Program-made: the position numbers and the translations under genes
NCBI GenBank assembly: GCA_905178155.1
Contig: CAJINV010000003.1
Coordinates: 7,673,882-7,737,881 of the forward strand
From: Amoebophrya sp. A120
Lineage: Eukaryota; Protista; Dinoflagellata
DNA: 64,000 nucleotides
Direction of reading: 5' to 3'
Notes under the pieces: generated by a model
Told to the model about the DNA's origin: nothing
Database searches by the model: none
Seen by the model: only the letters and a program-made list of their open reading frames with translations
Shown: in pieces, positions 9,380-55,135 of the stretch
How positions within the stretch are numbered: position 1 is the stretch's first letter
Layout: each line of letters opens with the position of its first letter

Positions 9380-9404
9380 AACTTACTGTCATGCAGGATG
9401 CAGT

Positions 9405-17993: not shown

Positions 17994-18419
17994 CCTGAAT
18001 AGAGAAGAAGACAGTCGGCCGCCTTGGAACGACTCAAACTAGCACAAGAACGAGAAAACGGCTCCAGCTCGAGGAGACCTGCACTCTGGCCGCGCTTCGG
18101 TCGCGCAACCAAGTCGGCTTCAGATGCAGCACTTAACTCTAGGATCGACAAGACTAGCGCATTGCTTAGAGTTGGGGGCGGTTCCTTTCCCGGACAGGCG
18201 CTGAAACTTGATGGGCGTTGCTAACCAAGGGACGCAGAACACTTGTAAAAATCGTGCCCGAGTGGCGTCCGGCACGGAGCCGCGGAGCGTCGCTTCTCGC
18301 CGGACGAGATGACCGAAGCAGTCCCGCGCCAGCTGACCACAAGATGGCACTGGCGGCCCGGCGGGGGACGGGGGGGGGGGAGCTTCCGCGGCGGGTCGCG
18401 TCGCGGACCGGGAAGGGCG

Positions 18420-18743
18420 CCGACACCGTACACCCCGCAGCCCAGGGGCCCGCCGGCGCAAAGTACCGCGATCCCGGAGCCCGACGGCGGAAAGGACCGC
18501 ACTCCCGGGGCCGGCCGGCACAAGATACTGCGTCCCGGGGGCCGACTGGCGCAAAATGATGTATCCTCCAGGCTGGAGAGCCCTGGGGCCTGCAGGTGGA
18601 CAATTCCGCAACCACAGGGCCCACCGAAGTACAATATCGCAACCTGAGAGCTTCCCGGCGCAAAGTATCGCAACAAGTGGTCCGCTCCTTGTAAAAGAAT
18701 GACACTGTCGGGCCCACAGCTGGTCCAAAATACTGTGACCTAG
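18420..18743. repeat. Degenerate 31-bp-period GC-rich repeat (left of the LTR element)
   Basis: GGCGCAAAG-like anchors at 18455, 18486, 18517, 18548, then 18595, 18626, 18657. Confidence 0.7.
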
Positions 18744-21700
18744 TGTCAAAATCCTCCCAGATTTCACCAGTAAACCAGCAATAACTGCGAAACTGGCCAA
18801 AACTTTTCTGGCAACAACTTCCACGGGAGCAGTAAAGTTCTGCCAAGGCGAAGCAGGAATACGGGAAGTTTTGGACTTGGTGGATATCTTGCGGCTAAGA
18901 CGTCCGCTGTGGCTGTACTCGGGCGACCGTGCGGCGTGGCTGTATATACACCACACCGCACCAAGGAAGCAGTTACTTGGGGCACTCACTCAGAAAGGTG
19001 GGCCAGGTTTAGCATCTCTTACGGGAGAACGCCATACCTGGTATGCAGACGGTACAGGCATCCGCTGCTACGCGGACAACGTCAAAAATGGTCCAGATAC
19101 CGCGGGAAAGTTTTTCCCCCTTGCCACCGAATTTCCTGCGCGAAGATTCTGGAAAGGTGAAAGCAAGTTGGAAATTGTGTAAGAACGAGGAAACCTGCAG
19201 CGGTTTGCGCGACAGCTGCCGGAAAAGGATCCAGCGTCGTGGGTATCGGGAAGTCAGGAAGAGTCACAATAAGTCTTCTATTGGTGTTTATAAAAAGTCC
19301 CTATTCTTTTCAGGGAACAGCTTCAGGCTTAACAATTAGAAGAGAAAGAGAATAAGTGGCCAACTCTTTTCGAAAAGATCCACGCGTGGAGATCATCTTC
19401 GTGCTTATTTTTTGTGACAAAAAGATGAACTCTTCAGCAAGTTACTCAGAAAAGGAAAAGAAGACGTCTTTATCATCTGTGGAAGCGTCTTCTCATAAAA
19501 AGATCTACACTTTCTGCGTGCGAGCATTGGGCAGATCTTAGCTGCTGTCTCATTGGTTGGCGGTTTTGGTGGTCGTGCTTGTTTTTGAAATTATCATTAA
19601 GAATTTCTTTTCAGGGAAAATCATTTTCAAGCGGCTGTATCTTTCTTCAGGCGACAAAAAGATTTAAGATTGGAGCAAAAGCAAAAAAGTGAATCAACGC
19701 TACTTATTTGAAACAGGCGACACATCTCCACTGCAGTCATTCTTTGCATCCTTTTAAATACAGCGACTATTTACAGCGACAACTTTAAAGCGACTCTCTA
19801 AGCGACATTTTGAAAAAAACTTCCTTTGCTGTATCTCGAAAATAAACCCCAAAGATTAACTTAATCTGACTCCTTCCTGCACGATGCCGCCGAAGGCAAA
19901 GGCCAAGCCCAAGGCAAAGCCGCAGGTGAAGAGGCAGCCACGCAGCCATGGACTGCCTCCAGGACAACAGGCGCTGCCGAATCAGCAGGAACAACAGCCG
20001 CAACAGCAAGGAAATAACGCTGCTGGTCAGCTCCAGACTCCTGCGGGTTTTATCCCTATATTGGATCCGAGTGGTAATCTGGTAGGGATTCAGCAGCTGG
20101 CTCCGGCTGCTCCTGTGATCGCCAACCCCGGGGCTAAACCGAAGGCGGCTAGGGGAAGACCGCGTACGTCTAGTGGACATAAAAGACAGCTAAAGGCAAA
20201 ACGGCAGGCGAGGTGGAAGGAAAAGAAATTCGGGAAGAAGCAGTCAAAGAAGAAAGGAAAAGGGAGAAGGAGAGACGTGCTGTCTGATAGTTCGGAGTCG
20301 GAGGAAGAGAACAACAATTTTTTAGCAATCGAAAACGCACAAGGAGAAGGACTTCTTGCTATCGAGGATATTCCCCGTGACCCTCCGGTTGTCCAAGATG
20401 AAGCCAACGAATACGGCAACCGGTCTCCTGCTTTTGTCCCGGATCAAGGGCAAGAAAACGCAGGAGGAGAAGCACCAAGAAATGCGGGAATTATTAATGT
20501 ATCTATCACTCCGAACACAGGACCGGCTCCGTCCCCGCCTCCACCTCCGGTGTTGATTTTAGGAGCAAGCTCTTCTTCTGGGAGCCAGAATGTAGCACAA
20601 GGACATGCATCGTCTTCATCTTCTGGTGTACCGCGACCATTTCCGCTGCCGCAACTTCGTCCACGTATTCAGCCGAAGGCGAAAATTGGACAGTTGAACA
20701 TGTCCAGGATCAACCGTCTGTGTGCCGGTAAGCCTCCGAGCTCCGGGTCTGATTCTTCAAACAGCTCGGGATCTGACACGTGCACGGAGTCAGATGAGGA
20801 CGAAGAGGAGCACGCAATGCGAAAACAACAAAAATATTTAAACAAGGAAAACAGCAAAAAGCGGAAGCGCGGCTGCAGCTTTGACCGTGAAGAAGAAAGA
20901 GCTGTGCGTCGCGCGGAAACGGAAAGACGTTTTTGGCCTACCTATGGCGAGGATGATGACGAGGAGGAAGAAGAGGAAGAAGAAGGACAAGTGGATCTTC
21001 GTGGTGCAAAGTACGGACCAATTCTAGACATCGGAGATGATTTAAACGACTTTATTGTAGATGATCCTCTTGAAGCAGGAGTGGAAGAAGGAGAGGTGTT
21101 GGAAGACGGAGTTTACGTGTCGACTGTGTACGAAGATGCGCAACTGCGGATCACCATTATTCGTCGACCGGGAGAGCGGTGGCCAAAGGGTCTGCGGGTT
21201 TTCTGGAAGACGTCTAAACCTACGTTGACGTTGGAAGGATACAATCCGGAAAAATTCGACCGGTTTCTGTACCAAACAAAGGACACCGGTTTTGTTGACA
21301 AAACAGAACTCACGGAGTGGGCCCAAGTGATTGTCAACACAATTGACGGGCAGAATCGAACCTGGGATTATTTAACCGACTCTATGGTGGAAAACGACAA
21401 TGTGCTTGATTTTATCAAGTACATGCGGGGCCTTCAAGCAGCAGCTGCCTCCGCTCCTGTGCCCACAGCCTTGGACGAGTTAGATGACCTGTTCGCAGAT
21501 GACAACCCAGTCGCTCCGGCTGCAGTACAACCGTCTCCAACTGCTACTTCAGTTCAGACTTCTACCACGACAACGACTCATGCTCAACCCTCCACAAACA
21601 TCAGTTCAGCTCAGCCTTCGACAAACGTATCAAATACAACTGCGTCTTCATCAGTGGGTACGACGAAGAAAAAGGAGAAAAAGGAAACATTGCTGCCAAC

Positions 21701-24700
21701 CGAGTCAGATGAAGAGGGTGGAGACGAAAATGGGAATGAACCATCTCCAGAACAAGAACTCCCTGCCTCGGTGAGTCCTGAAAAATTAATTGAAGAAATT
21801 ATTTCCCCGACGGAAGCTCAACAAAACTTGACTCGCTTCCTGGGAAATAGCAGTGTCATTGTGGGAGGACGCACATCAGCGAGCGGCAGCAGTGCCAGTA
21901 GCGCTGCCGATGACGACCATCGCTACCCTCCTTTTCAGCTCGGAGAAGACATAGATTGGGATCCCTCCATGCCGTTGCCTGCCCCGTTTCCGACCATCAA
22001 CTCTCCGGCTCACAGTCCAGATGTGCAGCCAGAATCGGCCACGCAGAACGTTCTGCCTTTATCTGATTTGGACCATGCTCTTCCCGATCTGGACATTGCT
22101 ACCCTGGACCACCTGATCAATGTAACCGCGGAATTGGCGGGGCAAGAAAATGAAGACGTTCAAACCGGTTCGTCGCAGCTGCAACAACAGGCGTCTCAGG
22201 TTGAGCCGCTGGATCAGTCGATTTATGAACAAGTGGTGGCTGACCAACAGCTTGCGCTGGCATTGATGCAAGAGGAGCAAGCACTGGGACCGCTGGACAT
22301 TGGCACTACCTTAACGGGGGAGCGGTATAATGCAGATGTGCATCTACAAATCGCACCGAGCCCAGCGATGGCGTTTACTCCGGCATTGTTGCCGGGTGCT
22401 GCATCATCATCGTCTTCCGCGGCGCAGAACCACAACGACTTCCATCACCACAACATTGATCAACATTGGTCGGGAAGGAGACGCTCTAGATCAAGAAGGA
22501 GGCGATCAGTTTCTCGTGGAAGACGCAATAATGGGCTGCTAGCACGACGTACTCCGAGCAAGAAGTGGAGCAAGAGACATGATCCCTCCCACGCGCGGCG
22601 TAGGGAGTGCAAATACTTCTGTCAACTGCATGGTTGGAATACCACGCACGCCAGCGACGACTGTTATCGTCTAAACGACATTACGGAGTATGTGCAGGTA
22701 GAATGGAATCTGTGGGTTCCCTGGCACATCTATTGGAGGGATTACGCACATCTTTATTGGAACAACGCCGACGAGGAATGGAGAGATGAAGCAGTCGCAG
22801 CAGAAAACTCGTACACTCGAGCTCATCCAGAAGAACAAGAACCGGAGGCGGAAGCACCGCCACCCGTTACTCCTGTCGCTGCTCCTCAAGAAGATGTTGT
22901 AATGGAAGACGTGGAAATGGAAAATGCAAACAACAATGATCCCGTCCCGGTGGAGCCAGTGACTCAAGAGCAGCCTTCCGCAGGTGCGCGACGCGGTTCT
23001 CCAATCCCCGAATCCAGCCCGTTGGATGAAGATCGTACCCGTCGTACGTCTTCGGACATGGAGATCGATCTCCCTTCGGAAGGAAGTGATGAGATCTTTG
23101 GGGATGGGCAGGAAAACGAAGAGGAGACGGAAATTGCATCTCCGCCTCCTTCTGCGTCTCCACCTGAAACACAGCTGGCGATCTTTGACCCGGAAGTTAG
23201 AAAGGAGAAGCTGCGGGTTTGGGGATTGAACGTCAACGCTGTCCGATCTACGACGGAACAAATTCGGAACTTGCCGGAGTTCAAGAAAATTCTGGAAAAA
23301 TACGGAACAAATAAGTTCTTGCAGTTGGTCCGCTACGGTTTTAACAAGAACATGGCTTCTTCGCCGGTGATTGGGTTAGTGGATGGGGCCATCGAGCATC
23401 AACGGGAATTGGAGAGCGATGAGCAAATTCCCGCTTCTCCGTCTCCTGGAGATGTAGCTGCACCTCCACAAGAACAAGAAAATGCAGATCAAGAATTAAC
23501 GTCTCCTGACTTGTCACAACAAGGAATTCCCGTGAACAACGTCGCCTCGATCTTGGATGACGCCGTTGGTGCGACGGCTGAAGAGGAAGAAAGCTTTGCA
23601 ATGATGGATGAAATTCCCACGGAAGGACAAGAACAGGCAGAAGACCTTACAAGGATGTATGAAGTTCACACGGGAGATTATCTGCCGATTTTGTTCGGAT
23701 CTCCTGTGTCTCCAGAACAACCTGTTGTTCCATTGTGGTCTGATTTTGTGGAACAGGGAGGAAATGAACAAGAATTGGAAGCTCCGCGTTCTCCAGAAAA
23801 AGACGTCCAAGAAGAATACGAACCAGGTGGTGATGACAGTAATGAGAACGTCGGAAATGCTGACCAGGAGAATCAGCAGGCCAATGATCAGGATCTCGGT
23901 GGAAACAACAACATCGTCGTTCAAAACAACAACGTCGTCGTGCAGGACAATAATCAACAAGTGATTGCAAACATGTCTCCCGCTGTTGATCAAGGAAATA
24001 CGGCAAGCATAGCCGTGCAAACGACGGGCGATGATCAACAGGCGCAAGTAGATAGAGAAATTGATCTTGATGTGCAACCAGGAATTTACAACCTCGCTCC
24101 TGGAACTTACAACGTAAACTTCAGGATCTCGGAAGAGCGGCCCTGCAATATCCAGTAAAAGAACAATTCGTTACCAGCAAGGCAGAATAGAATCATCCGG
24201 AATAACATCAGAAGAATCCAGCAGTAGTCGCGAAAAGACGGGATTGAAGAGATGCGAAAAGGAGATGATTATCCAAAGAAAGATATTCGAACTATCTTCA
24301 GATTAGAGCGTGAGTATAACTATCACATCCTTTTATATCAAATGGGTAGCACTTCTCATTCAATAGATGAAAATCGCTGCTTCAGAAAAGACGTTTTTTC
24401 CAGAACCAAAGCAATACGCGCTTGCATCTACTGAGGCGTAGGATGCTAAGTGATCCATCAATTTCAAATTCCTCGGTAAAGTTTTTTGCTGAAGAACAAC
24501 TTATTGGAAAAAGCAAAGAAATAAAGCTGTCAAATATTCATCGGTGAAGACTGGATTGTCAATACTTGTTTTTTGGTAATAAGAAGAACACTGGGACACA
24601 CAAGTAACAAGACCTATAAAAGACAGCTTAATAAAAAAACTCATTCATCTTTTTGTTTCGCACGATCATCGGGCACAATCTTGAATTTTTATATCTCTCT

Positions 24701-25240
24701 TTTTTGCTGTCGCCCCACAGCCAATTTTTTGTTGGAAGTTTTCGAGGAAGGCAACACGACACTCATGCGGACAGAAAAAATCTCTCATTTTAATCAAAAA
24801 CAGTAGAAGAGATTTTCGTGAAGACGACAACGGCCTTGTTTGTCTGTCTTAACTCGACTTCTAGAACTAATTTCTGAATAAAAAACTGAAAAAAGTAAAA
24901 AACACTGAAAAACCAAAAAAACGCAAAAAATAACCTTGCTTCGCACTCTCGATCGACTCTCTGTTGATCTCCTTCTGGGTAAGGACGAACGGAGACTTAT
25001 CTCCAGTTCGTGTTTTCACAACATCACGGCTTTTAAGAAGAATCGGCTTAATCTGGTCTGACGTGTCGGCTTTATCGTAGGAAGACATTTAAATCGTACA
25101 TTACCTGTTGCCAATCGTATGTCGTTGCAGACGCACAAATAAATCGTCTACTTTCGGTGAACTCGTCCGTCGTTGAGGAGAGCGCTCAGTTGCGGATTTC
25201 TCGGAATTGTTCGATGACCAGTTTTAACCCGTTTCTGACA
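18744..25240 (+). repeat. 5' LTR (6497 bp)
   Basis: Begins TGTCAAAATCCTCCCAG, ends CCCGTTTCTGACA; similarity to 30244-36740 stops at these ends. Confidence 0.92.
19884..24158 (+). CDS. 1424-aa LTR-encoded protein: basic N-terminus, acidic low-complexity body, RS-rich patch plus CHHC zinc-knuckle-like motif
   Basis: Uninterrupted ATG-TAA ORF, intact in both LTRs; FCQLHGWNTTHASDDC at ~22617-22664. Confidence 0.85.
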   Translation: MPPKAKAKPKAKPQVKRQPRSHGLPPGQQALPNQQEQQPQQQGNNAAGQLQTPAGFIPILDPSGNLVGIQQLAPAAPVIANPGAKPKAARGRPRTSSGHKRQLKAKRQARWKEKKFGKKQSKKKGKGRRRDVLSDSSESEEENNNFLAIENAQGEGLLAIEDIPRDPPVVQDEANEYGNRSPAFVPDQGQENAGGEAPRNAGIINVSITPNTGPAPSPPPPPVLILGASSSSGSQNVAQGHASSSSSGVPRPFPLPQLRPRIQPKAKIGQLNMSRINRLCAGKPPSSGSDSSNSSGSDTCTESDEDEEEHAMRKQQKYLNKENSKKRKRGCSFDREEERAVRRAETERRFWPTYGEDDDEEEEEEEEGQVDLRGAKYGPILDIGDDLNDFIVDDPLEAGVEEGEVLEDGVYVSTVYEDAQLRITIIRRPGERWPKGLRVFWKTSKPTLTLEGYNPEKFDRFLYQTKDTGFVDKTELTEWAQVIVNTIDGQNRTWDYLTDSMVENDNVLDFIKYMRGLQAAAASAPVPTALDELDDLFADDNPVAPAAVQPSPTATSVQTSTTTTTHAQPSTNISSAQPSTNVSNTTASSSVGTTKKKEKKETLLPTESDEEGGDENGNEPSPEQELPASVSPEKLIEEIISPTEAQQNLTRFLGNSSVIVGGRTSASGSSASSAADDDHRYPPFQLGEDIDWDPSMPLPAPFPTINSPAHSPDVQPESATQNVLPLSDLDHALPDLDIATLDHLINVTAELAGQENEDVQTGSSQLQQQASQVEPLDQSIYEQVVADQQLALALMQEEQALGPLDIGTTLTGERYNADVHLQIAPSPAMAFTPALLPGAASSSSSAAQNHNDFHHHNIDQHWSGRRRSRSRRRRSVSRGRRNNGLLARRTPSKKWSKRHDPSHARRRECKYFCQLHGWNTTHASDDCYRLNDITEYVQVEWNLWVPWHIYWRDYAHLYWNNADEEWRDEAVAAENSYTRAHPEEQEPEAEAPPPVTPVAAPQEDVVMEDVEMENANNNDPVPVEPVTQEQPSAGARRGSPIPESSPLDEDRTRRTSSDMEIDLPSEGSDEIFGDGQENEEETEIASPPPSASPPETQLAIFDPEVRKEKLRVWGLNVNAVRSTTEQIRNLPEFKKILEKYGTNKFLQLVRYGFNKNMASSPVIGLVDGAIEHQRELESDEQIPASPSPGDVAAPPQEQENADQELTSPDLSQQGIPVNNVASILDDAVGATAEEEESFAMMDEIPTEGQEQAEDLTRMYEVHTGDYLPILFGSPVSPEQPVVPLWSDFVEQGGNEQELEAPRSPEKDVQEEYEPGGDDSNENVGNADQENQQANDQDLGGNNNIVVQNNNVVVQDNNQQVIANMSPAVDQGNTASIAVQTTGDDQQAQVDREIDLDVQPGIYNLAPGTYNVNFRISEERPCNIQ

Positions 25241-25255
25241 TGGTGAGGCCAGAGC
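25241..25255 (+). other. Candidate primer-binding site TGGTGAGGCCAGAGC
   Basis: TGG (complement of tRNA CCA) immediately follows the 5' LTR; cognate tRNA not identified. Confidence 0.6.
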
Positions 25256-25470
25256 TAGTGTTGACCACTAGCTGATAGCAACCACGTGATACAGGACAAG
25301 GAGACAACGTTTTCTCCTACACGTTTGCAACCTGTTGGACTCCTTCATCACCATCATTTTCACCTTCAACGGAGAAGCAGGATTTGTTCGACTCCATCAG
25401 CAGAGAAGGACAGACTCTCCTACTTTTCCAATTTTGAGATTTTGATGCACTACAAGGCCGTTCTGCGTAC

Positions 25471-26565
25471 ATGAACTTCAACTTGCCTCCAGCTGACCAC
25501 CTCACATTTCCCAACTTGCCCAATTCTGTTGAACCTCGAGAAGTAATTGAGCCTTGCGCTATCTTTTTCGGTAACTGCCCGGTCGGAGATCCCAGATATC
25601 TATTTTCCCACAACTCAGTTCCGTACGTGGTCAATTTGGACGAGCGAGCAGATCTTCGGATTCCCGGACGACGCGGAACTTTGTTATTGCCAACTGAACA
25701 CGTAGTCGATCTAATAGATCCGATTGCTCGGAAAGCAAACAATCAATTTTTGAACTGGACCTACGACCGCAACGCATTCGTTGTGTTGACAACCTTCAGT
25801 AGCAAGGAAGAATACCTGGCAAGTACCTTTCGGAGAACCCACCACTTGCGTGCTGACCAAGCAGACCGATTTGTGACGGAGAGTCGACGAGTCGTGCTTG
25901 CCTGGCCGATTCGGTGGTGCCAAGTGAGGACTCCGCAGAGAAGACAACAAGTCAACGGCGACTCTATCATCGGCTTTTCCACCATCCAACGGCATCTTCC
26001 TGAGTGGTGCATTCCTCCGGAAGACGCTAATACGGAGACGCAAATAAGGACTATTCCGTCTAGTGAAGATCGAGAAGTTAGAGCACAATTGCACGAAGGT
26101 CCTCCAACTACTACACCGGTCCATCGTTTAATCGCACCAGAAGACGCTCAAAGAATTGCTGCTCCTGCACCAACTTCCTTTTCGCTATCAAGAACCCTCG
26201 AGTTGGTGTACGGTCAATTAGCACCTACCTTTCCCCGGACCCTGGCTGACCAAGACAGATTCTTTGATCTCATCGGTTTGGGCGACAGACCATCATCGTC
26301 ACCATCGAATCAAAGATCGTCTCCGCCCCGGGAGGGAACCCCAAGACCGTATACCGCTCCGCGTCCTCAAACGCCTCTCCGCGTCCCATCGGAGAACGTT
26401 TGCATCATTTGCTTGGAGCAAGAAGCCAATGCAACCTTCCTCCATCGGTTCACTGGACACACGTGCTGTTGCTTTCGCTGCGCTCAGCAGGCCTTTGAGC
26501 GGGACCGCAGGTGTCCAATTTGTCGGATGCAAGTAGACCGGGTGATTAAAAACTATCGGAGTTAA
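25471..26565 (+). CDS. Element cargo: 364-aa protein with C-terminal MDM2-type C2H2C4 RING (putative E3 ligase)
   Basis: CIIC-x10-H-x4-H-x3-C-x2-C-x10-CPIC-RMQVDRVIKNYRS* at 26401-26565. Confidence 0.85.
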   Translation: MNFNLPPADHLTFPNLPNSVEPREVIEPCAIFFGNCPVGDPRYLFSHNSVPYVVNLDERADLRIPGRRGTLLLPTEHVVDLIDPIARKANNQFLNWTYDRNAFVVLTTFSSKEEYLASTFRRTHHLRADQADRFVTESRRVVLAWPIRWCQVRTPQRRQQVNGDSIIGFSTIQRHLPEWCIPPEDANTETQIRTIPSSEDREVRAQLHEGPPTTTPVHRLIAPEDAQRIAAPAPTSFSLSRTLELVYGQLAPTFPRTLADQDRFFDLIGLGDRPSSSPSNQRSSPPREGTPRPYTAPRPQTPLRVPSENVCIICLEQEANATFLHRFTGHTCCCFRCAQQAFERDRRCPICRMQVDRVIKNYRS

Positions 26566-26597
26566 GAAGAAAAGGAAAGAAGGAGACGGAAAAGTAT

Positions 26598-27176
26598 ATG
26601 TGGTATTTGATCGTCGATCAATCCAAACCATTACAACTACATCTTCAAGATTCTTCCCACAGTAAATCCAACGGTACCAAGTGCGGGTGGATATTGTTGA
26701 CCGTAAAGGACGAGCTCTGCATTCAACGGATTGTCTTTCCTCGAGAAGTGATTATCATTTTCCGCTCACATCTGGAAGAAGACCCGGAATCCCTTGGAGT
26801 TTGGGACGCACTGCTACAGATAAGAATTCTGGCTCGCTTTGCGTCAGTAGTCGTCTGCTACATTAAAGGACAATTCTACTTCACTCCCTTGCACTACGCG
26901 ACGGAAACAGCAGGACTGGGATCAGTAAGATTGCACTACATTCCGCGAGTAAAATTCCCGGAAAAGATCTCTGGTTTCTACCAGTCTGCAGTGGTAAGGA
27001 TAAACGAACTTCGGTGCCCGGACGTAATCGACTACAACGTTCTCAGTTACTCGAAGAAGACCTTGCAGCTGACAGGAAAAATCAATCGGACCCTCACGCA
27101 CCCTTTTTCGTATTCCAGTGTGAAGAACATTAAAGACGGCTACACCTGGAATTACGAGCCGGAACCAGAAGAATAA
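26598..27176 (+). CDS. Element cargo: 192-aa hypothetical protein
   Basis: ATG-initiated intronless ORF 32 nt after the RING ORF; globular-looking composition. Confidence 0.6.
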   Translation: MWYLIVDQSKPLQLHLQDSSHSKSNGTKCGWILLTVKDELCIQRIVFPREVIIIFRSHLEEDPESLGVWDALLQIRILARFASVVVCYIKGQFYFTPLHYATETAGLGSVRLHYIPRVKFPEKISGFYQSAVVRINELRCPDVIDYNVLSYSKKTLQLTGKINRTLTHPFSYSSVKNIKDGYTWNYEPEPEE

Positions 27177-27198
27177 ACCGTCTTCATCATAATGCTAC

Positions 27199-28104
27199 AT
27201 GGCTGATTACTCTCTCGACCTGAGACTATTCTTCGGATTACCAATAAGGGTGAATCGGGAAAACATCAGTAAAAGAACCGGTCTTCCAGGAATTCTAGCG
27301 GGGATCAGTACACGCGAGTACCTACGCTGTGGATTCCAAGGGCAACAACTCATTGGAGACCCAGAAGTACACGAGGAGTTACAAAAAACAGATTTGTTCG
27401 TCTTCTTGGAAAAGTCTCTCTGTGAAGGACTTTTGGTTTACCCGACTACAGGCGGAAAGCAACATAGATTCATCCGGGTGGCACCGTTGGAGTTTGTACA
27501 GCTGAACCGTAGTTCAGCGGCAACCTGTATTTCGCAAGCAGGCGAGCAACTCTTCTTGAGGAACATAAATCCTCTGTGCAACATCTGTGACGGCTCGCTG
27601 ATAATCCTGAACAAAGATCACCCGGAGGGATGAGAAAACAACTACTGCTTCGCCACACTCAAGCACGCATTGTTCTTGGCGTATCGGTGTAGGAGACCCC
27701 TTAAACCGCGAGAAAATTTCCAGAGAGTTCACTTCCGTGAAGAACCAGACGAAGAACAAGTGGACGACATACCAATCACGAGCAAGGAGGTAGCAAGAAT
27801 AAAATCGGAGCCGGTGATACCAAAGAACTACAACGCCTTTGAAAGCGACCCGTACTGTCAGTTCATTCACGACTCGGGAGCACCATTTCAAGCCATCAAT
27901 TTTGAGTGCGCTCTCGTACCGGAAATTCCGAATTTTATCAACCACTACAGCCATCCAGGTCGCCTCGGTTACTACCACAACGCACCATCGGAACCTTCAG
28001 TGAGTAACTACACTGGGACTCGGTCAGACGACTCGTTTCGGTCAAGCATTCGTAGCTTTAGGACAGCTCGTGCAATCCACTACATCGAAAACGGATACAG
28101 CTAA
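27199..28104 (+). CDS. Element cargo: ~301-codon frame interrupted by one in-frame TGA (27631-27633)
   Basis: ORFs 27199-27633 and 27670-28104 share a frame: ...CNICDG...HPEG*ENNYCFATLKHALFLAY... Confidence 0.55.
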
Positions 28105-28411
28105 GCTTCAGTTTTATGCTTTCCGCAATACTAGACTTCTTCGTCGACCTACTAGAAGAAGCAAAAAGAACAATCATACTCGGTATTGACGAAGCGATTA
28201 CATTCGTTCAATCCGCGCGCTAAAAGAACAAAGAAGACGGAAAAATCAGTACGCACAACTACAATTGGGCTAAAGGCTACGGACAACACTTTCGTGCGAT
28301 CAGGAGAAACATCGTACAGCAAGACGTTAAACAACAAACGGAATAAAATATCTTCAACAGCAACAACTACTTCAACAGTTCCCTCGTATTAAAACGACTC
28401 CCACATACAAC

Positions 28412-28647
28412 ATGTGTTGTTTTGAATTTCTCAACCGGGTGTTTAACACCAAAGCCTACCAAATCCAACAGCAGGCCGAATTGGAAGAAAAGATGAAGAT
28501 GATCGACGCTGCTGTTGAAGAATCCCTCAAGAAACACCGCACCCCATCCAAAAGACGGTCTAATCAGACGGAAGAAGATGATTTTTCTGCTGTTTCTCCA
28601 GGACCGCAACCCACTCCCATTTGCGTGGAAGTTGAGGAAGACGATGA
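28412..28647 (+). CDS. Element ORF start (MCCFEF..., coiled-coil-like), truncated by assembly gap
   Basis: ATG at 28412, open until the N run; link to pol across the gap unproven. Confidence 0.5.
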
Positions 28648-28747
28648 NNNNNNNNNNNNNNNNNNNNNNNNNNNNNNNNNNNNNNNNNNNNNNNNNNNNN
28701 NNNNNNNNNNNNNNNNNNNNNNNNNNNNNNNNNNNNNNNNNNNNNNN
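28648..28747. other. Assembly gap (100 N, probably placeholder length)
   Basis: Run of exactly 100 N. Confidence 0.99.
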
Positions 28748-30772
28748 CAAGAACTCGGACAACTCCACAGTGCGAAGCGGCAAGTAGAAGAGCAAAAAGA
28801 CGGAGAAATGGATTCGGATGGTGATCAAGACGGTTTGTACAGTATCACTTCGCGTGAGCTGGTAACCGATCTCACCAGTCTACATGAGTCTCATCCTCAC
28901 CGTTTTCTACTTGGAGCCGTAGGAATACACGTGGATGATTTGTTGACAGCAGGATCTGAACTTGTTTACCTTCGTCTTCAGATTTTGTTTGACATGTTCG
29001 ACGTCTCGGGACTCGCAATGTTGCAGTTAGGAAAAAGAGACGCTTTTGTCGGGAAGGAAATAGCCTGTCTTCCGGAAGCATTTGATGCTTATGAAGTTAA
29101 ACAGGAACTGGAAGAGGAGGTCAAGTTCTTGAAAGCCATTGAGTTTGAAAATCCGGAGCCCTTGTTTACCGTTAACTACACCGAAGAACAAATTGCGGAA
29201 GTAGAAAAAGCAACAGGTTTGAAGAGAAGCAACAAAGCAGAAGATTTACCTGCGGTGGAGCCAGTACCATTCACCTTTGAAGCTGCCGCAGAACGTCTTC
29301 GACCAACAATTCCTGTTTTTTACGTCCTCAGTCAAGAATCCTATGTGGAAAAGATAAAGTGTTTGGAACGGGAAGAGGTAGAGGAGTACTGGAGGAAGAG
29401 GTCATTTGCAAAGAATAAGTTTGCGTTGAGTCAAATCAAATCACCTTTTCGGGGAAGAATTGGCGAGCTTCTTTGGTGCACAAAGACGTCAGCGGTGTTA
29501 TTAGAACGTCTCTCGGACCTAGCAAGCGCGGTCCACTTGATGGAGAACTACAACACCTACGTGGAGGAAGTAGAACAATTCTGCGAGCGGCTGAACTCGT
29601 TCATCCTCTTTGCTCAGGGAAGTCAGTTTTGCTCTAGAAGAATCTCCCACACTGGCGGTTTGGGAGAATTCGGGGTGGTTGGATTAGCAGACGCATCCAA
29701 GACCAAGATTGGGGGTTTGGTCTGCCTTGCGGGACGAAACTCACAACGTGTCACGCCGATTACATCATGGAGCAAAGCTCCAAATCGTGTCTTTTCCAGT
29801 TCAACCGGAATTGAACTGTTGGCACAGCGGATCCTAGTGTCGGAGTGTTTGTGGCACAAACAAATTGGAATTGACCTGTCTCTCGTTCCGTACGACATGC
29901 CTCTCCTGCAATTCACGGACTCGAAGAACTTGGTGATCAGTGATCCTTCGGAGAAAAATTTGAAGTCGGACTTCTTGTTTTTAAACCAACTTTTGGAACT
30001 CAAACAGTTGGCAGTGGAACACACGCGTGGAAAAACAATGCCACCAGACGCGCTGACAAAGAGTCCGCTGTACTCCGAGGTTGCTACCCTTCACCTTGTG
30101 AACAGGTTTGGAATCCTAGATCGGGAACTGAGTAATCGGATTAGCACGTTCATAAGCCAGAACCTAGAACGACTCCAGGACCTCGACTCTGGCAACAAGA
30201 CGGAAAAGCCCCCAGTTTCGCAGCTACAAGAAGAAAATATTGGTGTCAAAATCCTCCCAGATTTCACCAGTAAACCAGCAATAACTGCGAAACTGGCCAA
30301 AACTTTTTTGACAACAACTTCTACGGGAGCAATAAAGTTTTGCCAAGGCGAAGCAGGAATACGGGGAATTTTGGATTTGGTGGATATCTTGCGGTTAAGA
30401 CGTCCGCTGTGGCTGTACTCGGGTGACCGTGCGGCGTGGCTGTATATACACCACACCGCACCAAGGAAGCAGTTATTCGGGGCACTCACTCAGAAAGGTG
30501 GGCCAGGTTTAGCATCTCTTACGGGAGAACGCCATACCTGGTATGCAGACGGTACAAGCATCCGTTGCTACACGGACAACATCAAAAATGGTCCAGATAC
30601 CGCGGGAAAGTTTTTCCCCCTTGCCACCGAATTTCCTGCGCGAAGATTCTGGAAAGGTGAAAGCAAGTTGGAAATTGTGGAAGAACGAGGAAACCTGCAG
30701 CGGTTTGCGCGACAGCTGCCGGAAAAGGATCCAGCGTCGGGGGTATCGGGAAGTCAGGAAGAGTCACAATAA
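28748..30772 (+). CDS. pol: Copia-type Pol C-terminal part: RT (C-terminal half), RNase H and extension into the 3' LTR
   Basis: GIHVDDLL (HVDD at 28928-28939), FVGKEI, LSQESYVEKI, FRGRIGELLW, GLADAS, WSKAPNRVFSSSTGIE, FTDSKNL, MPPDALTK. Confidence 0.88.
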   Translation, partial: QELGQLHSAKRQVEEQKDGEMDSDGDQDGLYSITSRELVTDLTSLHESHPHRFLLGAVGIHVDDLLTAGSELVYLRLQILFDMFDVSGLAMLQLGKRDAFVGKEIACLPEAFDAYEVKQELEEEVKFLKAIEFENPEPLFTVNYTEEQIAEVEKATGLKRSNKAEDLPAVEPVPFTFEAAAERLRPTIPVFYVLSQESYVEKIKCLEREEVEEYWRKRSFAKNKFALSQIKSPFRGRIGELLWCTKTSAVLLERLSDLASAVHLMENYNTYVEEVEQFCERLNSFILFAQGSQFCSRRISHTGGLGEFGVVGLADASKTKIGGLVCLAGRNSQRVTPITSWSKAPNRVFSSSTGIELLAQRILVSECLWHKQIGIDLSLVPYDMPLLQFTDSKNLVISDPSEKNLKSDFLFLNQLLELKQLAVEHTRGKTMPPDALTKSPLYSEVATLHLVNRFGILDRELSNRISTFISQNLERLQDLDSGNKTEKPPVSQLQEENIGVKILPDFTSKPAITAKLAKTFLTTTSTGAIKFCQGEAGIRGILDLVDILRLRRPLWLYSGDRAAWLYIHHTAPRKQLFGALTQKGGPGLASLTGERHTWYADGTSIRCYTDNIKNGPDTAGKFFPLATEFPARRFWKGESKLEIVEERGNLQRFARQLPEKDPASGVSGSQEESQ

Positions 30773-33700
30773 ATCTTTTATTGATGTTTATAAAAAGTCT
30801 CTATTCTTTTCAGGGAACAACTTCAGGTTTAACAATTAGAAGAGAAAGAGAATAAGTGATCAATTCCTTTCGAAAAGATCCACGTGTGAAGATCATCTTC
30901 GTGCTTATTTTTTGTGACAAAAAGATGAATTCTTCAGCAAGTTATTCAGAAAAGGAAAAGAAGACGTCTTTATCATCTGTGGAAGCGTCTTCTCATAAAA
31001 AGATCTACACTTTCCGCGTGCGAACATTGGACAGATCTTAACTGCTGTTTCATTGGTTGGTGGTTTTGGTGGTCGTACTTGTTTTTGAAATTATCATTAA
31101 AAATTTCTTTTCAGGGAAAATCATTTTCAAACGGCTGTATCTTTCTTTAGGCGACAAAAAGATTTAAGATTGGAGTAAAAACAAAAAAGTGAATCAACAC
31201 TACTTATTTGAAACAAGCGACGCATCTCTATTGCAATCATTCTTTACATCCTTTTAAATACAGCGACTATTTACAACGACAACTTTAAAGCGACTCTTTA
31301 AGCGACATTTTGAAAAAACTTCCTTTGCTGTATCTCGAAAATAAACCCCAAAGATTAACTTAATCTGACTCCTTCCTGCACGATGCCGCCGAAGGCAAAG
31401 GCCAAGCCCAAGGCAAAGCCGCAGGTGAAGAGGCAGCCACGCAACCAAGGACTGCCTCCAGGACAACAGGCGCTGCCGAATCAGCAGGAACAACAGCCGC
31501 AACAGCAAGGAAATAACGCTGTTGGTCAGTTCCAGATTCCTGCGGGTTTTATCCCTATATTGGATCCGAGTGGTAATCTGGTAGGGATTCAGCAGCTGGC
31601 TCCGGCTGCTCCTGTGATCGCCAACCCCGGGGCTAAACCGAAGGCGGCCAGGGGAAGACCGCGTACGTCTAGTGGACATAAAAGACAGTTAAAGGCCAAA
31701 CGGCAGGCGAGGTGGAAGGAAAAGAAATTCGGGAAGAAGCAGTCAAAGAAGAAAGGAAAAGGGAGAAGGAAAAACGTGCTGTCTGATAGTTCGGAGTCGG
31801 AGGAAGAGAACAACAATTTTTTAGCAATCGAAAACGCACAAGGAGAAGGACTTCTTGCTATCGAGGATATTCCCCGTGACCCTCCGGTTGTCCAAGATGA
31901 AGCCAACGAATACGGCAACCGGTCTCCTGCTTTTGTCCCGGATCAAGGGCAAGAAAACGCAGGAGGAGAAGCACCAAGAAATGCGGGAAATATTAATGTA
32001 TCTATCACTCCGAACACAGGACCGGCTCCGTCCCCGCCTCCACCTCCGGTGTTGATTTTAGGAGCAAGCTCTTCTTCCGGGAACCAGAATGTAGCACAAG
32101 GACAAGCATCATCTTCATCTTCTGGTGTACCACGACCATTTCCGCTGCCGCAACTTCGTCCACGTATTCAGCCGAAGGCGAAAAATGGACAGTTGAACAT
32201 GTCCAGGATCAACCGTCTGTGTGCCGGTAAGCCTCCGAGCTCCGGGTCTGATTCTTCAAACAGCTCGGGATCTGACACGTGCACGGAGTCAGATGAGGAC
32301 GAAGAGGAGCACGCAATGCGAAAACAACAAAAATATTTAAACAAGGAAAACAGCAAAAAGCGGAAGCGCGGCTGCAGCTTTGACCGTGAAGAAGAAAGAG
32401 CTGTGCGTCGCGCGGAAACGGAAAGACGTTTTTGGCCTACCTATGGCGAGGATGATGACGAGGAGGAAGAAGAGGAAGAAGAAGGACAAGTGGATCTTCG
32501 TGGTGCAAAGTACGGACCAATTCTAGACATCGGAGATGATTTAAACGACTTTATTGTAGATGATCCTCTTGAAGCAGGAGTGGAAGAAGGAGAGGTGTTG
32601 GAAGACGGAGTTTACGTGTCGACTGTGTACGAAGATGCGCAACTGCGGATCACCATTATTCGTCGACCGGGAGAGCGGTGGCCAAAGGGTCTGCGGGTTT
32701 TCTGGAAGACGTCTAAACCTACGTTGACGTTGGAAGGATACAATCCGGAAAAATTCGACCGGTTTCTGTACCAAACAAAGGACACCGGTTTTGTTGACAA
32801 AACAGAACTCACGGAGTGGGCCCAAGTGATTGTCAACACAATTGACGGGCAGAATCGAGCCTGGGATTATTTAACCGACTCTATGGTGGAAAACGACAAT
32901 GTGCTTGATTTTATCAAGTACATGCGGGGCCTTCAAGCAGCAGCTGCCTCCGCTCCTGTGCCCACAGCCTTGGACGAGTTAGATGACCTGTTCGCAGATG
33001 ACAACCCAGTCGCTCCGGCTGCAGTGCAACCGTCTCCAACTGCTACTTCAGTTCAGACTTCTACCACGACAACGACTCATGCTCAACCCTCCACAAACAT
33101 CAGTTCAGCTCAGCCTTCGACAAACGTATCAAATACAACTGCGTCTTCATCAGTGGGTACGACGAAGAAAAAGGAGAAAAAGGAAACATTGCTGCCAACC
33201 GAGTCAGATGAAGAGGGTGGAGACGAAAATGGGAATGAACCATCTCCAGAACAAGAACTCCCTGCCTCGGTGAGTCCTGAAAAATTAATTGAAGAAATTA
33301 TTTCCCCGACGGAAGCTCAACAAAACTTGACTCGCTTCCTGGGAAATAGCAGTGTCATTGTGGGAGGACGCACATCAGCGAGCGGCAGCAGTGCCAGTAG
33401 CGCTGCCGATGACGACCATCGCTACCCTCCTTTTCAGCTCGGAGAAGACATAGATTGGGATCCCTCCATGCCGTTGCCTGCCCCGTTTCCGACCATCAAC
33501 TCTCCGGCTCACAGTCCAGATGTGCAGCCAGAATCGGCCACGCAGAACGTTCTGCCTTTATCTGATTTGGACCATGCTCTTCCCGATCTGGACATTGCTA
33601 CCCTGGACCACCTGATCAATGTAACCGCGGAATTGGCGGGGCAAGAAAATGAAGACGTTCAAACCGGTTCGTCGCAGCTGCAACAACAGGCGTCTCAGGT

Positions 33701-36700
33701 TGAGCCGCTGGATCAGTCGATTTATGAACAAGTGGTGGCTGACCAACAGCTTGCGCTGGCATTGATGCAAGAGGAGCAAGCACTGGGACCGCTGGACATT
33801 GGCACTACCTTAACGGGGGAGCGGTATAATGCAGATGTGCATCTACAAATCGCACCGAGCCCAGCGATGGCGTTTACTCCGGCATTGTTGCCGGGTGCTG
33901 CATCATCATCGTCTTCCGCGGCGCAGAACCACAACGACTTCCATCACCACAACATTGATCAACATTGGTCGGGAAGGAGACGCTCTAGATCAAGAAGGAG
34001 GCGATCAGTTTCTCGTGGAAGACGCAATAATGGGCTGCTAGCACGACGTACTCCGAGCAAGAAGTGGAGCAAGAGACATGATCCCTCCCACGCGCGGCGT
34101 AGGGAGTGCAAATACTTCTGTCAACTGCATGGTTGGAATACCACGCACGCCAGCGACGACTGTTATCGTCTAAACGACATTACGGAGTATGTGCAGGTAG
34201 AATGGAATCTGTGGGTTCCCTGGCACATCTATTGGAGGGATTACGCACATCTTTATTGGAACAACGCCGACGAGGAATGGAGAGATGAAGCAGTCGCAGC
34301 AGAAAACTCGTACACTCGAGCTCATCCAGAAGAACAAGAACCGGAGGCGGAAGCACCGCCACCCGTTACTCCTGTCGCTGCTCCTCAAGAAGATGTTGTA
34401 ATGGAAGACGTGGAAATGGAAAATGCAAACAACAATGATCCCGTCCCGGTGGAACCAGTGATTCAAGAGCAGCCTTCCGCAGGTGCGCGACGCGGTTCTC
34501 CAATCCCCGAATCCAGCCCGTTGGATGAAGATCGTACCCGTCGTACGTCTTCGGACATGGAGATCGATCTCCCTTCGGAAGGAAGTGATGAGATCTTTGG
34601 GGATGGGCAGGAAAACGAAGAGGAGACGGAAATTGCATCTCCGCCTCCTTCTGCGTCTCCACCTGAAACACAGCTGGCGATCTTTGACCCGGAAGTTAGA
34701 AAGGAGAAGCTGCGGGTTTGGGGATTGAACGTCAACGCTGTCCGATCTACGACGGAACAAATTCGGAACTTGCCGGAGTTCAAGAAAATTCTGGAAAAAT
34801 ACGGAACAAATAAGTTCTTGCAGTTGGTCCGCTACGGTTTTAACAAGAACATGGCTTCTTCGCCGGTGATTGGGTTAGTGGATGGGGCCATCGAGCATCA
34901 ACGGGAATTGGAGAGCGATGAGCAAATTCCCGCTTCTCCGTCTCCTGGAGATGTAGCTGCACCTCCACAAGAACAAGAAAATGCAGATCAAGAATTAACG
35001 TCTCCTGACTTGTCACAACAAGGAATTCCCGTGAACAACGTCGCCTCGATCTTGGATGACGCCGTTGGTGCGACGGCTGAAGAGGAAGAAAGCTTTGCAA
35101 TGATGGATGAAATTCCCACGGAAGGACAAGAACAGGCAGAAGACCTTACAAGGATGTATGAAGTTCACACGGGAGATTATCTGCCGATTTTGTTCGGATC
35201 TCCTGTGTCTCCAGAACAACCTGTTGTTCCATTGTGGTCTGATTTTGTGGAACAGGGAGGAAATGAACAAGAATTGGAAGCTCCGCGTTCTCCAGAAAAA
35301 GACGTCCAAGAAGAATACGAACAAGGTGGTGATGACAGTAATGAGAACGTCGGAAATGCTGACCAGGAGAATCAGCAGGCCAATGATCAGGATTTCGGTG
35401 GAATCAACAACTTCGTCGTTCAAAACAACAGCGTCGTCGTGCAGGACAATAATCAACAAGTGATTGCAAACATGTCTCCCGCTGTTGATCAAGGAAATAC
35501 GGCAAGCGTAGCCGTGCAAACGACGGGCGATGATCAACAGGCGCAAGTAGATGGAGAAATTGATCTTGATGTGCAGCCAGGAATTTACAACCTCGCTCCT
35601 GGAACTTACAACGTAAGCTTCAGGATCTCGGAAGAGCGGTCCTGCGTTATCCAGTAAAAGAGCAATTCGTTACCAGCAAGGCAGAATAGAATCATCCGGA
35701 ATAACATCAGAAGAGTCCAGCAGTAGTCGCGAAAAGACGGGATTGAAGAGATGTGAAAAGGAGATGATTATCCAAAGAAAGATATTCGAATTATCTTCAG
35801 ATTAGAACGCGAGTATAACTATCACATCCTTTTATATCAAATGGGTAGTGCTTCTCATTCAATAGATGAAAGTCGCTGTTTCAGAAAAGACGTTTTTTCC
35901 AGAACCAAAGCAATACGCGCTTGCATCTACTGAGACGTAGGATGCTAAGTGATCCATCAATTTCAAATTCCTCGGCAAAGTTTTTTGCTGAAGAACAACT
36001 TATTGGAAAAAGCAAAGAAGTAAAACTGTCAAATATTCATCGGTGAAGACTGGATTGCCAATACTTGTTTTTTGGTAATAAGAAGAACACTGGGACACAC
36101 AAGTAACAAGACCTATAAAAGACAGCTTAATAAAAAAAACTCATTCAGCTTTTTGCTTCGCACGATCATCGGGTACAATCTTGAGTTTTTATATCTCTCT
36201 TTTTTGCTGTCGCCCCACAGCCAATTTTTTGTTGGAAGTTTTCGAGGAAGGCAACACGACATTCATGCGGACAGAAAAAATCTCTCATTTCAATCAAAAA
36301 CAGTAGAAGAGATTTTCGTGAAGACGACAGCGGCCTTGTTTGTCTGTCTTAACTCGACTTCTAGAACTAATTTCTGAATAAAAAACTGAAAAAAGTAAAA
36401 AACACTTAAAAACCAAAAAAACACAAAAAATAACCTTGCTTCGCACTCTCGATCGACTCTCTGTTGATCTCCTTCTGGGTAAGGACGAGCGGAGACTTAT
36501 CTCCAGTTCGTGTTTTCACAACGTCACGGCTTTTAAGAAGAATCGGCTTAATCTGGTCTGACGTGTCGGTTTTATCGTAGGAAGACATTTAAATCGTACA
36601 TTACCTGTTGCCAATCGTATGTCGTTGCAGACGCACAAATAAATCGTCTACTTTCGGTGAACTCGTCCGTCGTTGAGGAGAGCGCTCAGTTGCGGATTTC

Positions 36701-36740
36701 TCGGAATTGTTCGATGACCAGTTTTAGCCCGTTTCTGACA
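30244..36740 (+). repeat. 3' LTR (6497 bp)
   Basis: Copy of 18744-25240; preceded by a weak purine tract AAGAAGAAAA (30228-30237); followed by TSD CCTAG. Confidence 0.92.
31383..35657 (+). CDS. Second copy of the 1424-aa LTR-encoded protein
   Basis: Same length, near-identical to 19884-24158; substitutions mainly near the termini. Confidence 0.85.
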   Translation: MPPKAKAKPKAKPQVKRQPRNQGLPPGQQALPNQQEQQPQQQGNNAVGQFQIPAGFIPILDPSGNLVGIQQLAPAAPVIANPGAKPKAARGRPRTSSGHKRQLKAKRQARWKEKKFGKKQSKKKGKGRRKNVLSDSSESEEENNNFLAIENAQGEGLLAIEDIPRDPPVVQDEANEYGNRSPAFVPDQGQENAGGEAPRNAGNINVSITPNTGPAPSPPPPPVLILGASSSSGNQNVAQGQASSSSSGVPRPFPLPQLRPRIQPKAKNGQLNMSRINRLCAGKPPSSGSDSSNSSGSDTCTESDEDEEEHAMRKQQKYLNKENSKKRKRGCSFDREEERAVRRAETERRFWPTYGEDDDEEEEEEEEGQVDLRGAKYGPILDIGDDLNDFIVDDPLEAGVEEGEVLEDGVYVSTVYEDAQLRITIIRRPGERWPKGLRVFWKTSKPTLTLEGYNPEKFDRFLYQTKDTGFVDKTELTEWAQVIVNTIDGQNRAWDYLTDSMVENDNVLDFIKYMRGLQAAAASAPVPTALDELDDLFADDNPVAPAAVQPSPTATSVQTSTTTTTHAQPSTNISSAQPSTNVSNTTASSSVGTTKKKEKKETLLPTESDEEGGDENGNEPSPEQELPASVSPEKLIEEIISPTEAQQNLTRFLGNSSVIVGGRTSASGSSASSAADDDHRYPPFQLGEDIDWDPSMPLPAPFPTINSPAHSPDVQPESATQNVLPLSDLDHALPDLDIATLDHLINVTAELAGQENEDVQTGSSQLQQQASQVEPLDQSIYEQVVADQQLALALMQEEQALGPLDIGTTLTGERYNADVHLQIAPSPAMAFTPALLPGAASSSSSAAQNHNDFHHHNIDQHWSGRRRSRSRRRRSVSRGRRNNGLLARRTPSKKWSKRHDPSHARRRECKYFCQLHGWNTTHASDDCYRLNDITEYVQVEWNLWVPWHIYWRDYAHLYWNNADEEWRDEAVAAENSYTRAHPEEQEPEAEAPPPVTPVAAPQEDVVMEDVEMENANNNDPVPVEPVIQEQPSAGARRGSPIPESSPLDEDRTRRTSSDMEIDLPSEGSDEIFGDGQENEEETEIASPPPSASPPETQLAIFDPEVRKEKLRVWGLNVNAVRSTTEQIRNLPEFKKILEKYGTNKFLQLVRYGFNKNMASSPVIGLVDGAIEHQRELESDEQIPASPSPGDVAAPPQEQENADQELTSPDLSQQGIPVNNVASILDDAVGATAEEEESFAMMDEIPTEGQEQAEDLTRMYEVHTGDYLPILFGSPVSPEQPVVPLWSDFVEQGGNEQELEAPRSPEKDVQEEYEQGGDDSNENVGNADQENQQANDQDFGGINNFVVQNNSVVVQDNNQQVIANMSPAVDQGNTASVAVQTTGDDQQAQVDGEIDLDVQPGIYNLAPGTYNVSFRISEERSCVIQ

Positions 36741-36859
36741 CCTAGGCACCCAATAGTGGAAAACATTGCACCCATTTTGGCGCGTTGACGGAAAAAAATG
36801 CATTGTAACGGCCATCGCAGCTCTTTCATTGGAAAATCCTACAATTGGAAGGTTGGGCA

Positions 36860-37470
36860 GCACATATATTGCGCAGCTTGTGGCTGAGTGGCAAGATTTT
36901 CTGCGGCGCGCTGACCAACTTCCAAGATGTTGCGTGGTTCTTTCGCCAGCTGGCAAGATTTTCTGCTGCAAGGCCGCCAGCTGGCGAGATTTTGTAGAGC
37001 ACGGCGGCCAGCTAGCAAGATTTTGTGTGGTCAGGCGGCCAATTCACCAGATTTTACGCGACGAGGCGACCCGGACAGAAGATTTCGCGCGGTGTGGCGA
37101 CCGGCTCGCAAGATCTTGTGCGGCCACGCGGCCAGCTGGCTAGATTCTGTGCGGTGGGGCGGCCAGGTGGCGAGAGTTTTTGCAGAGGGGTAGCCAACTC
37201 GTGCGACTGCGCGCGGCGGGCAGCCGGCTGGCAAGATTTTCTGCGGCAAGGTAGTCGGCTGTCAAAATTTGGGACGGCAGCGCAAGGGCACTCGGCTGGC
37301 AAGATTTTGGGCGGCGGGGCTGGCAGCCGGCGAGATTGTGCGCCACAGGACGGCAAGCTGGAGAGATTTTGCACAGTGTGGCGGCAAGCTTGTCAGATTG
37401 TGCACGACGGGGCAGCCAGCTGGCAAGATTTTGCGCAGTGGGGTTGCCAGCTGGCAAGATTTTGTGCCCC
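36860..37470. repeat. Degenerate 31-bp tandem repeat (~19 units, core GCCAGCTGGCAAGATTTT)
   Basis: TGGCAAGATT-like anchors at 36889, 36920, 36951, 36982, 37013 ... 37452. Confidence 0.85.
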
Positions 37471-37474
37471 GCCT

Positions 37475-54700: not shown

Positions 54701-55135
54701 AGAACACATGGTCAGTCATCTGCGTTTTTCTGCGCACTGATATTTTCGAAGTTTTGGGACAAGAGCCGTCATCATGTGTGTTCGCGCGGACGACAGGCAG
54801 CACATATTTAGTAAAAACGACTGCTGTTTATCAATCTTACTGCAGCGATCTATCATGATGTGTTTTTTTGCACCATCTGTTTATGGTGGTTTTGATCATC
54901 TGCTGCATAACGGATCATCTAGAATTATCCTACTTCGACATCATCCTACGAAGCGAAGAAGTGAGTAAAGTAGAAATGCAGAGGGACTGAGTAAGAGGCA
55001 ACGCCAATCGCCACCTAATTCCGTCCGTCCATGCAGAATCAGTCTCAGTCTCAGAGCACGACTCCGGAATGATGTTGGTGCACTGGAAAGAATTCGAAAC
55101 CCCATTTGACTACTCCAGAAAGTAAGCAGAACAAC

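Follow-up and report, generated by a model that had tools for sequence, protein, structure and literature searches.

The 64-kb window analysed here, a stretch of contig CAJINV010000003.1 from the dinoflagellate Amoebophrya sp. A120 whose numbering is used throughout, contains a retrotransposon with two 6.5-kb long terminal repeats (LTRs), each of which holds a complete 1,424-codon open reading frame (ORF). We consider it probable that the element is copia-type and that its LTR includes both the end of pol and this ORF, likely an accessory gene that was absorbed into the U3 (unique 3') part of the LTR as the plus-strand priming site likely shifted upstream into pol.

Comparison of the window with itself revealed one long direct repeat, 18744–25240 against 30244–36740, of 6,497 bp in each copy and 98.2% identical. 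The alignment has 116 differing columns, namely 114 substitutions and two one-base indels. Both copies start with TGTCAAAA and end with TTTCTGACA (TGTCA...TGACA), which gives the paired repeats the TG...CA ends of LTR retrotransposons, and they are bracketed by CCTAG at 18739–18743 and 36741–36745, an exact target-site duplication within the 4–6-bp range of such elements. The initial annotation had reported the repeats, their ends and the duplication, and the self-comparison reproduced all three. Moreover, each of the four LTR junctions is marked independently: the two outer ones by flank and target duplication, the inner ones by the primer-binding site and by pol. A 31-bp periodicity of at least 0.45 was found only directly left and right of the element (1,266 windows of 300 bp), so that both flanks belong to one locus. 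Since no shorter repeat occurs inside the 6,497-bp unit (best internal match 14 bp, E 0.13), the LTR cannot be a smaller part of that unit, and an arrangement of short-LTR elements in tandem, with four LTRs in all, was rejected. Thus, the repeats are an LTR pair and not a tandem gene duplication, as already proposed from the sequence and now backed by the four junctions. The features of the LTR pair and its surroundings are as follows.

18400..18738, no strand: left part of an interrupted host array of 31-bp period (periodicity)
18739..18743, + strand: target-site duplication CCTAG, left copy (sequence)
18744..25240, + strand: 5' LTR, 6,497 bp, TGTCA...TGACA (sequence)
30244..36740, + strand: 3' LTR, 6,497 bp (sequence)
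36741..36745, + strand: target-site duplication CCTAG, right copy (sequence)
36746..37467, no strand: right part of the interrupted host array of 31-bp period (periodicity)

TGG stands directly 3' of the left repeat and begins the primer-binding site. To identify the primer, a T-loop and acceptor pattern was built from this site and scanned in metagenomes. Among the matches listed (128 metagenome stretches), 113 hold a tRNA ending on the pattern, and 109 of these 113 are tRNA-Trp(CCA). The commonest tRNA-Trp among the matches listed (26 loci) is complementary to the site at 15 of 15 nucleotides once CCA is added, a pairing measured on metagenomic tRNA-Trp rather than on the host's own. The TGG-starting primer site of the initial annotation was thereby borne out. 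At the other end of the internal region, the pol fragment carries reverse transcriptase (RT; HVDD) and RNase H (DALTK) motifs, enters the right repeat in frame and stays open for about 175 codons inside the 3' LTR.

25241..25255, + strand: primer-binding site, 15 nt complementary to the tRNA-Trp(CCA) 3' end once CCA is added (tRNA comparison)
28748..30772, + strand: pol, comprising the RT end, RNase H and a tail reaching about 175 codons into the 3' LTR (alignment with Amoebophrya polyproteins)
30228..30237, + strand: weak candidate for the polypurine tract, a run of 10 purines within the pol coding sequence that stops 6 nt short of the LTR (sequence)
18744..19272, + strand: 5' LTR counterpart of the pol C-terminal tail, interrupted by a premature TAA (19180–19182; LTR comparison)

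The pol fragment matches three of 7,989 candidate proteins of 1,181–3,370 aa, at 38–39% identity (E 7e-78 to 3e-74). All three are predicted proteins of Amoebophrya sp. AT5.2 (P0002–P0004), known here as gene models only; they resemble the element over the RT end and RNase H (about 39% identity) and share the same unusual spacer between the two. These matches point to a host of Amoebophrya type. The window fragment alone has no RT match in Pfam, and a PDB profile search returned nothing relevant; the three relatives match RVT_2 below its curated cut-off (E 4e-5, 6e-4 and 0.1) and no other RT family. In the two longer relatives, P0002 and P0003, an H-x2-LGH zinc-binding start lies well ahead of RT, in one of them together with a weak rve match. 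The integrase–RT–RNase H order of copia elements is thus seen in these relatives, while the window's own integrase would fall in an assembly gap. By contrast with Ty3/gypsy and BEL/Pao elements, in which integrase lies downstream of RNase H, pol of the window ends about 240 aa past RNase H with no integrase match. Taken together, alignment to the three polyproteins and the domain order in two of them support the earlier recognition of copia RT and RNase H motifs and point to enzymes of copia type.

The initial annotation had described a complete 1,424-aa ORF in each LTR, occupying two thirds of it. Indeed, both copies are open from ATG to stop, they differ at 23 residues, and the ORF accounts for 0.658 of the LTR (74% together with the pol tail). 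When the bases of the ORF were shuffled 200 times, no stop-free frame exceeded 314 codons, and 32–76 stops interrupt each of the other five frames. The ORF would lie in U3. Its G+C content at third codon positions (0.48) is close to that of pol (0.49), compared with 0.59–0.83 in seven long ORFs of the flanks that were treated as host genes; in codon use, too, the strongest correlation is with pol (r 0.48 versus 0.05–0.35). Both properties argue for long residence of the ORF in the element. Neither introns in the ORF nor a host paralog was found.

19759..19810, + strand: four 13-bp repeats with AGCGAC, about 75–125 bp upstream of the LTR ORF, a putative regulatory element (sequence)
19884..24158, + strand: LTR ORF, 1,424 aa, 5' copy, orphan (ORF call)
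22242..22277, + strand: DxxLAxxLxxEE motif (0.2% of 20,000 shuffles)
22620..22664, + strand: C-x2-H-x5-H-x4-C (CHHC) knuckle after an Arg-rich stretch, nucleocapsid-like (0.01% of 20,000 shuffles)
31383..35657, + strand: LTR ORF, 1,424 aa, 3' copy (ORF call)

The encoded protein has a basic N-terminus and is predicted by charge-hydropathy index to be about 75% disordered. Because it has no transmembrane-like segment (highest 19-residue hydropathy 0.97), it is not env-like. The DxxLAxxLxxEE motif is one that we take to be ubiquitin-binding-like; both this pattern and the CHHC knuckle were picked after the sequence had been seen. No homologs of the protein were found among 7,981 candidates of 783–2,492 aa, residues 375–1199 had no match in 1.84 billion representatives, and no family was assigned in Pfam, NCBIfam or PHROG. 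In Atlas, the best score was 0.85, to unnamed clusters, and a second segment had no usable match. A fold search gave nothing at E 0.001, and the single-sequence models were unusable (mean predicted local distance difference test scores of 41 and 39). Ahead of the knuckle no profile matched a capsid domain, and there too these structure models were too poor to judge by. A search for spliced-leader relics, using a motif that we presume to be the correct one, found none in the LTRs; the two matches in the window both lie outside them, with 2.4 expected by chance.

Downstream of the primer site, four same-strand ORFs (A–D) that the initial annotation had missed precede a gap in the assembly.

25471..26565, + strand: ORF-A, 364 aa, with an Mdm2-type RING at residues 309–362 (zf-C3HC4_3 E 1.5e-10; Mdm2 RING E 2e-9)
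26598..27176, + strand: ORF-B, 192 aa, orphan (family searches)
27199..28104, + strand: ORF-C, about 300 codons, orphan, with one in-frame TGA at 27631–27633 (family searches)
28412..28647, + strand: start of ORF-D, 78 aa, cut by the gap (sequence)
28648..28747, no strand: assembly gap of 100 N (sequence)

ORF-A, a retrotransposon ORF with a terminal Mdm2-type RING, is a finding in its own right; for its residues 1–300, none of 2,062 candidates was a homolog. The in-frame TGA of ORF-C is most simply read as decay, and ORF-D may be the start of gag or gag-pol. No gag was recognised in the 3.4 kb assembled after the primer site, and gag may lie in the gap or be the LTR ORF itself. Judged by spacing in the relatives, the gap should stand for about 3.2 kb or more, covering protease, integrase and most of RT, and the full element would be at least 21 kb long. 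That the gap would conceal these enzymes is a correction to the initial annotation.

We propose the following mechanism for the element. A host tRNA-Trp would prime minus-strand synthesis, and the plus strand would start at an A-rich tract inside pol, so that everything downstream is copied into both LTRs; on this proposal, the pol tail and the accessory gene are found in both LTRs because the priming site moved upstream into pol. The genomic RNA would start late in the LTR and contain a single copy of the gene, at the 3' end of the RNA, a place otherwise taken by env or 3' accessory genes. The gene could have its own mRNA through a U3 promoter or spliced-leader processing, and solo LTRs could express it as well. 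Spliced-leader trans-splicing exists in Amoebophrya, according to a paper that found no evidence of polycistronic co-regulation. Judging from motifs only, the protein may be a nucleic-acid-binding regulator, largely disordered, that cooperates with the RING protein to influence host ubiquitin or silencing pathways.

Several observations weigh against this explanation. The LTR protein has neither a homolog nor a fold to back any function. Of the codons that differ between the two ORF copies, 23 do so nonsynonymously and 9 synonymously; a ratio of about 2.0:1 would be expected in the absence of selection, and this comparison of two copies thus gives no signal of purifying selection. The CHHC knuckle is equally compatible with Gag and with an accessory role, and no gag was identified elsewhere. 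The sole polypurine candidate is the weak 10-purine run inside pol, 6 nt ahead of the 3' LTR. TATAAA boxes occur at LTR positions 546 and 5872, by our estimate in about the number that base composition predicts, and they were not accepted as promoter evidence. All results on the element come from one locus in the 64-kb window. Finally, only four of the 116 LTR differences fall in the middle 48% of the LTR (p 4e-27), and on the left side the strong/weak differences run in one direction, with G/C in the 5' LTR at 56 of 66 (p 7e-9).

The initial annotation is further corrected in that the differences between the repeats are distributed very unevenly: they amount to 4.9% at LTR positions 1–1100, 2.0% at 1101–1950, 0.13% at 1951–5079 and 2.9% at 5080–6497. 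At both ends, the flank-side copy has T in seven of seven A/T differences, and it also has the stop in the pol tail. On the right side, strong/weak differences run in both directions, 22 versus 15 (p 0.32). Probably, the locus as assembled combines parts of an older copy anchored in the flanks with parts of younger ones; on the simplest reading, the flank-anchored ends come from the former and the rest from the latter. Since the differences form a mosaic, dating by LTR divergence was rejected. The mosaic could have arisen by assembly at an old element or solo LTR, or by real conversion or recombination, and possibly not both of the assembled LTRs come from this site. According to the accessible part of their description (PMC7789003), published Amoebophrya assemblies kept short-read scaffolds that were gap-closed and ordered on long-read assemblies; if the window is of this kind, an assembly origin is plausible. 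The four junctions and the continuous ORF should be present in real copies, so that the architecture survives either origin.

The LTR differences also have a distinct base context. Among 101 LTR transitions, 58 are C/T followed by T on the pyrimidine strand (GCT/GTT 28, ACT/ATT 18), compared with a background of 27–33% (p 2e-10 to 4e-7), and the flank-side, apparently older copy tends to carry C at these sites. This suggests a T-to-C process at TT in decaying repeats; a tie to modified thymine in dinoflagellates is speculation.

Other readings of the locus have to be weighed against an accessory gene in U3. The most serious of them concerns the locus and is independent of function: the site could be a solo LTR or an old decayed element whose contigs the assembler filled from younger copies, in which case the architecture of the family is real and this two-LTR copy is not. 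The uneven LTR differences, the flank-side T alleles with the pol-tail stop, the gap of exactly 100 N and the short-read scaffolds retained in published assemblies all speak for it. However, the differences at the right end are two-sided, a genuine full element would look the same if gene conversion or cDNA recombination had altered an old LTR, and the internal part 3' of the primer site contains a stop of its own and hence is no clean consensus. We regard this as a substantial possibility, one towards which we do not quite incline. The duplication of a host gene, tandem or segmental, or its mis-join beside retroelement debris is by comparison highly improbable. The gap between the halves and the rarity of LTRs of this size would agree with it, but it is contradicted by the TG...CA ends, the exact 5-bp duplication, the tRNA-Trp primer site flush with the left repeat, the passage of pol across the start of the right repeat and the 31-bp array on both flanks.

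As for the ORF, it might encode Gag of the element, or else a distinct structural protein with a nucleocapsid, relocated in its entirety to the LTR and thus to the upstream side of the primer site. Consistent with this are the Arg-rich stretch followed by a single C-x2-H-x5-H-x4-C knuckle (0.01% of shuffles), the use of CHHC by Tat-lineage nucleocapsids in the available part of PMC2577118, the basic N-terminus and the failure to recognise gag in the 3.4 kb after the primer site; a match to a zf-CCHC cluster in Atlas (0.78) is at chance level. On the other hand, neither Pfam, structure prediction nor fold search gave a capsid domain, about 75% of the protein is predicted to be disordered, the x5 spacing of the knuckle departs from the canonical x4, and an ordinary gag could still be accommodated by ORF-D and the gap. 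We consider this reading unlikely, and only tentatively would we envisage an Amoebophrya copia lineage whose structural gene moved to the LTR, with the 1,424-aa protein as Gag or nucleocapsid inside a 6.5-kb LTR. More doubtful still is a one-off passenger: on this reading, one LTR picked up a host gene or a nested element, which was copied on one or a few occasions and plays no part in transposition. The absence of a selection signal between the copies and of a homolog in Amoebophrya polyproteins or protein libraries would fit such a passenger. Yet its codon use is like that of pol and unlike that of host ORFs, no terminal repeats surround it in the LTR, no introns or host paralog were found, and all 1,424 codons are open in both copies. 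The proposal of a possibly undescribed copia lineage in the initial annotation stands as regards a copia-type element with a gene in its LTR; a gene-filled LTR as a lineage-wide trait would go beyond the one locus behind the claim, and no relative with flanking DNA was found (none of 209 metagenome and none of 102 viral pattern matches encodes a pol relative).

Several further features were noted in the relatives and around the element. Residues 1–670 of P0003 give the impression of a second, unrelated RT/RNase H, going by motifs that we assume to be typical of these enzymes, and P0003 is perhaps a fusion of gene models. The same protein contains the motif W..H..PR...R.T...W.G three times (1460–1640 and the 2730–2830 region). 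The pol tail of the window resembles this three-copy motif by eye; the relationship is unproven, with a blastp E of 0.13 and a profile of the copies that missed the tail. The degenerate 31-bp array looks intergenic, is found nowhere else in the window and runs on into a GC-rich satellite with periods of 17, 42 and 59 bp, array and satellite together spanning 18400–18738 and 36746–38167. A 267-bp direct repeat (43119–43385 and 43655–43920, 88% identity), part of which recurs in inverted orientation at a distance of 13 kb (57070–57164), is possibly a small mobile element, and a near-perfect palindrome of 43 bp lies at 2370–2412. Host-like ORFs at 52754–54700, 55073–56314, 12893–14086, 7298–9382 and 57237–61511 yielded Pfam matches to dynactin p62, Mpv17/PMP22, TPR and, weakly, FkbM methyltransferase; a 1,396-aa ORF at 57321–61511 has no Pfam match. 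No tRNA genes were found in the window, and no Rfam families at cut-off.

The sag gene of mouse mammary tumour virus (MMTV) encodes a membrane superantigen of a few hundred residues. In PMC4667437, of which, as of the other papers cited here, we refer to the accessible portions, LTRs are said not to encode proteins as a rule, MMTV sag being the exception. Most of that gene lies in U3, and sag occurs mostly in solo LTRs (490 of 527 sag contigs). MMTV and related betaretroviruses thus resemble the Amoebophrya element in having a gene largely in U3, present in both LTRs and surviving in solo LTRs (PMC4667437), and the spread of a gene by solo LTRs is already known for MMTV-like sag. Unlike the element, however, MMTV is a retrovirus with env, whereas the element is copia-type and its 1,424-aa ORF lies wholly in the LTR and lacks a transmembrane-like segment.

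LTRs longer than 3 kb are uncommon (PMC3485330). Ogre elements of the Ty3/gypsy Tat lineage have LTRs of up to 6.5 kb, and not about 5 kb as the initial annotation had it, and exceed 20 kb in total (PMC6431247), so that the LTR length reported here ties with Ogre and is no record. Ogre also shares extra ORFs of unknown function with the element, but it is gypsy-type, its extra ORFs are internal, and the accessible text describes no gene inside its LTRs (PMC6431247). Similarly, the coding regions of group A CRM elements reach into the 3' LTR, as pol does here; these elements differ in being gypsy-type and primed by tRNA-Met, the overlap involves the integrase tail, and no separate LTR gene is described in the part of the source available (PMC3059260). 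SIRE and plant elements with extra ORFs include copia elements that have, 3' of pol, a rapidly evolving ORF in sense orientation (PMC6317226, PMC7264820), but this ORF stands between pol and the 3' LTR in a single copy, and most plant copia elements use tRNA-Met. Descriptions of plant and rotifer elements place their extra ORFs in the internal region (PMC6317226, PMC7264820, PMC5408684). The giant Burro elements of planarians are likewise very large and carry accessory domains linked to ubiquitination; they are gypsy-type, and these domains are internal or part of the polyprotein (PMC6431247). In the accessible text of PMC3601003, which treats LTR structure, the terms 'ORF' and 'open reading frame' are absent, and the main texts of PMC7789003 and PMC12130899, as far as accessible, mention Amoebophrya LTR families without such a structure. 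No retrotransposon with a large gene wholly inside the LTR was found in the literature searched, which left out most subscription papers and Repbase.

Collectively, the element joins known features at an extreme scale, as seen at a single locus whose assembly is incomplete. A gene of 4.3 kb that occupies two thirds of the LTR in a retrotransposon would be a far larger case than MMTV sag and, as far as the literature searched reaches, the first reported from copia. A shift of the plus-strand primer site would be a simple route to gene duplication and spread, placing the gene in every LTR and every solo LTR. LTR finders that impose short length limits would probably overlook such elements, which would be taken for tandem host genes. 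If the ORF is Gag after all, every solo LTR would be a free-standing gene for a particle protein, and the internal region would hold a virus-like accessory set, including the Mdm2-type RING. The silencing systems of this lineage have received little study, and for transposon counter-defence in it the RING protein and the LTR protein are candidates that can be tested.

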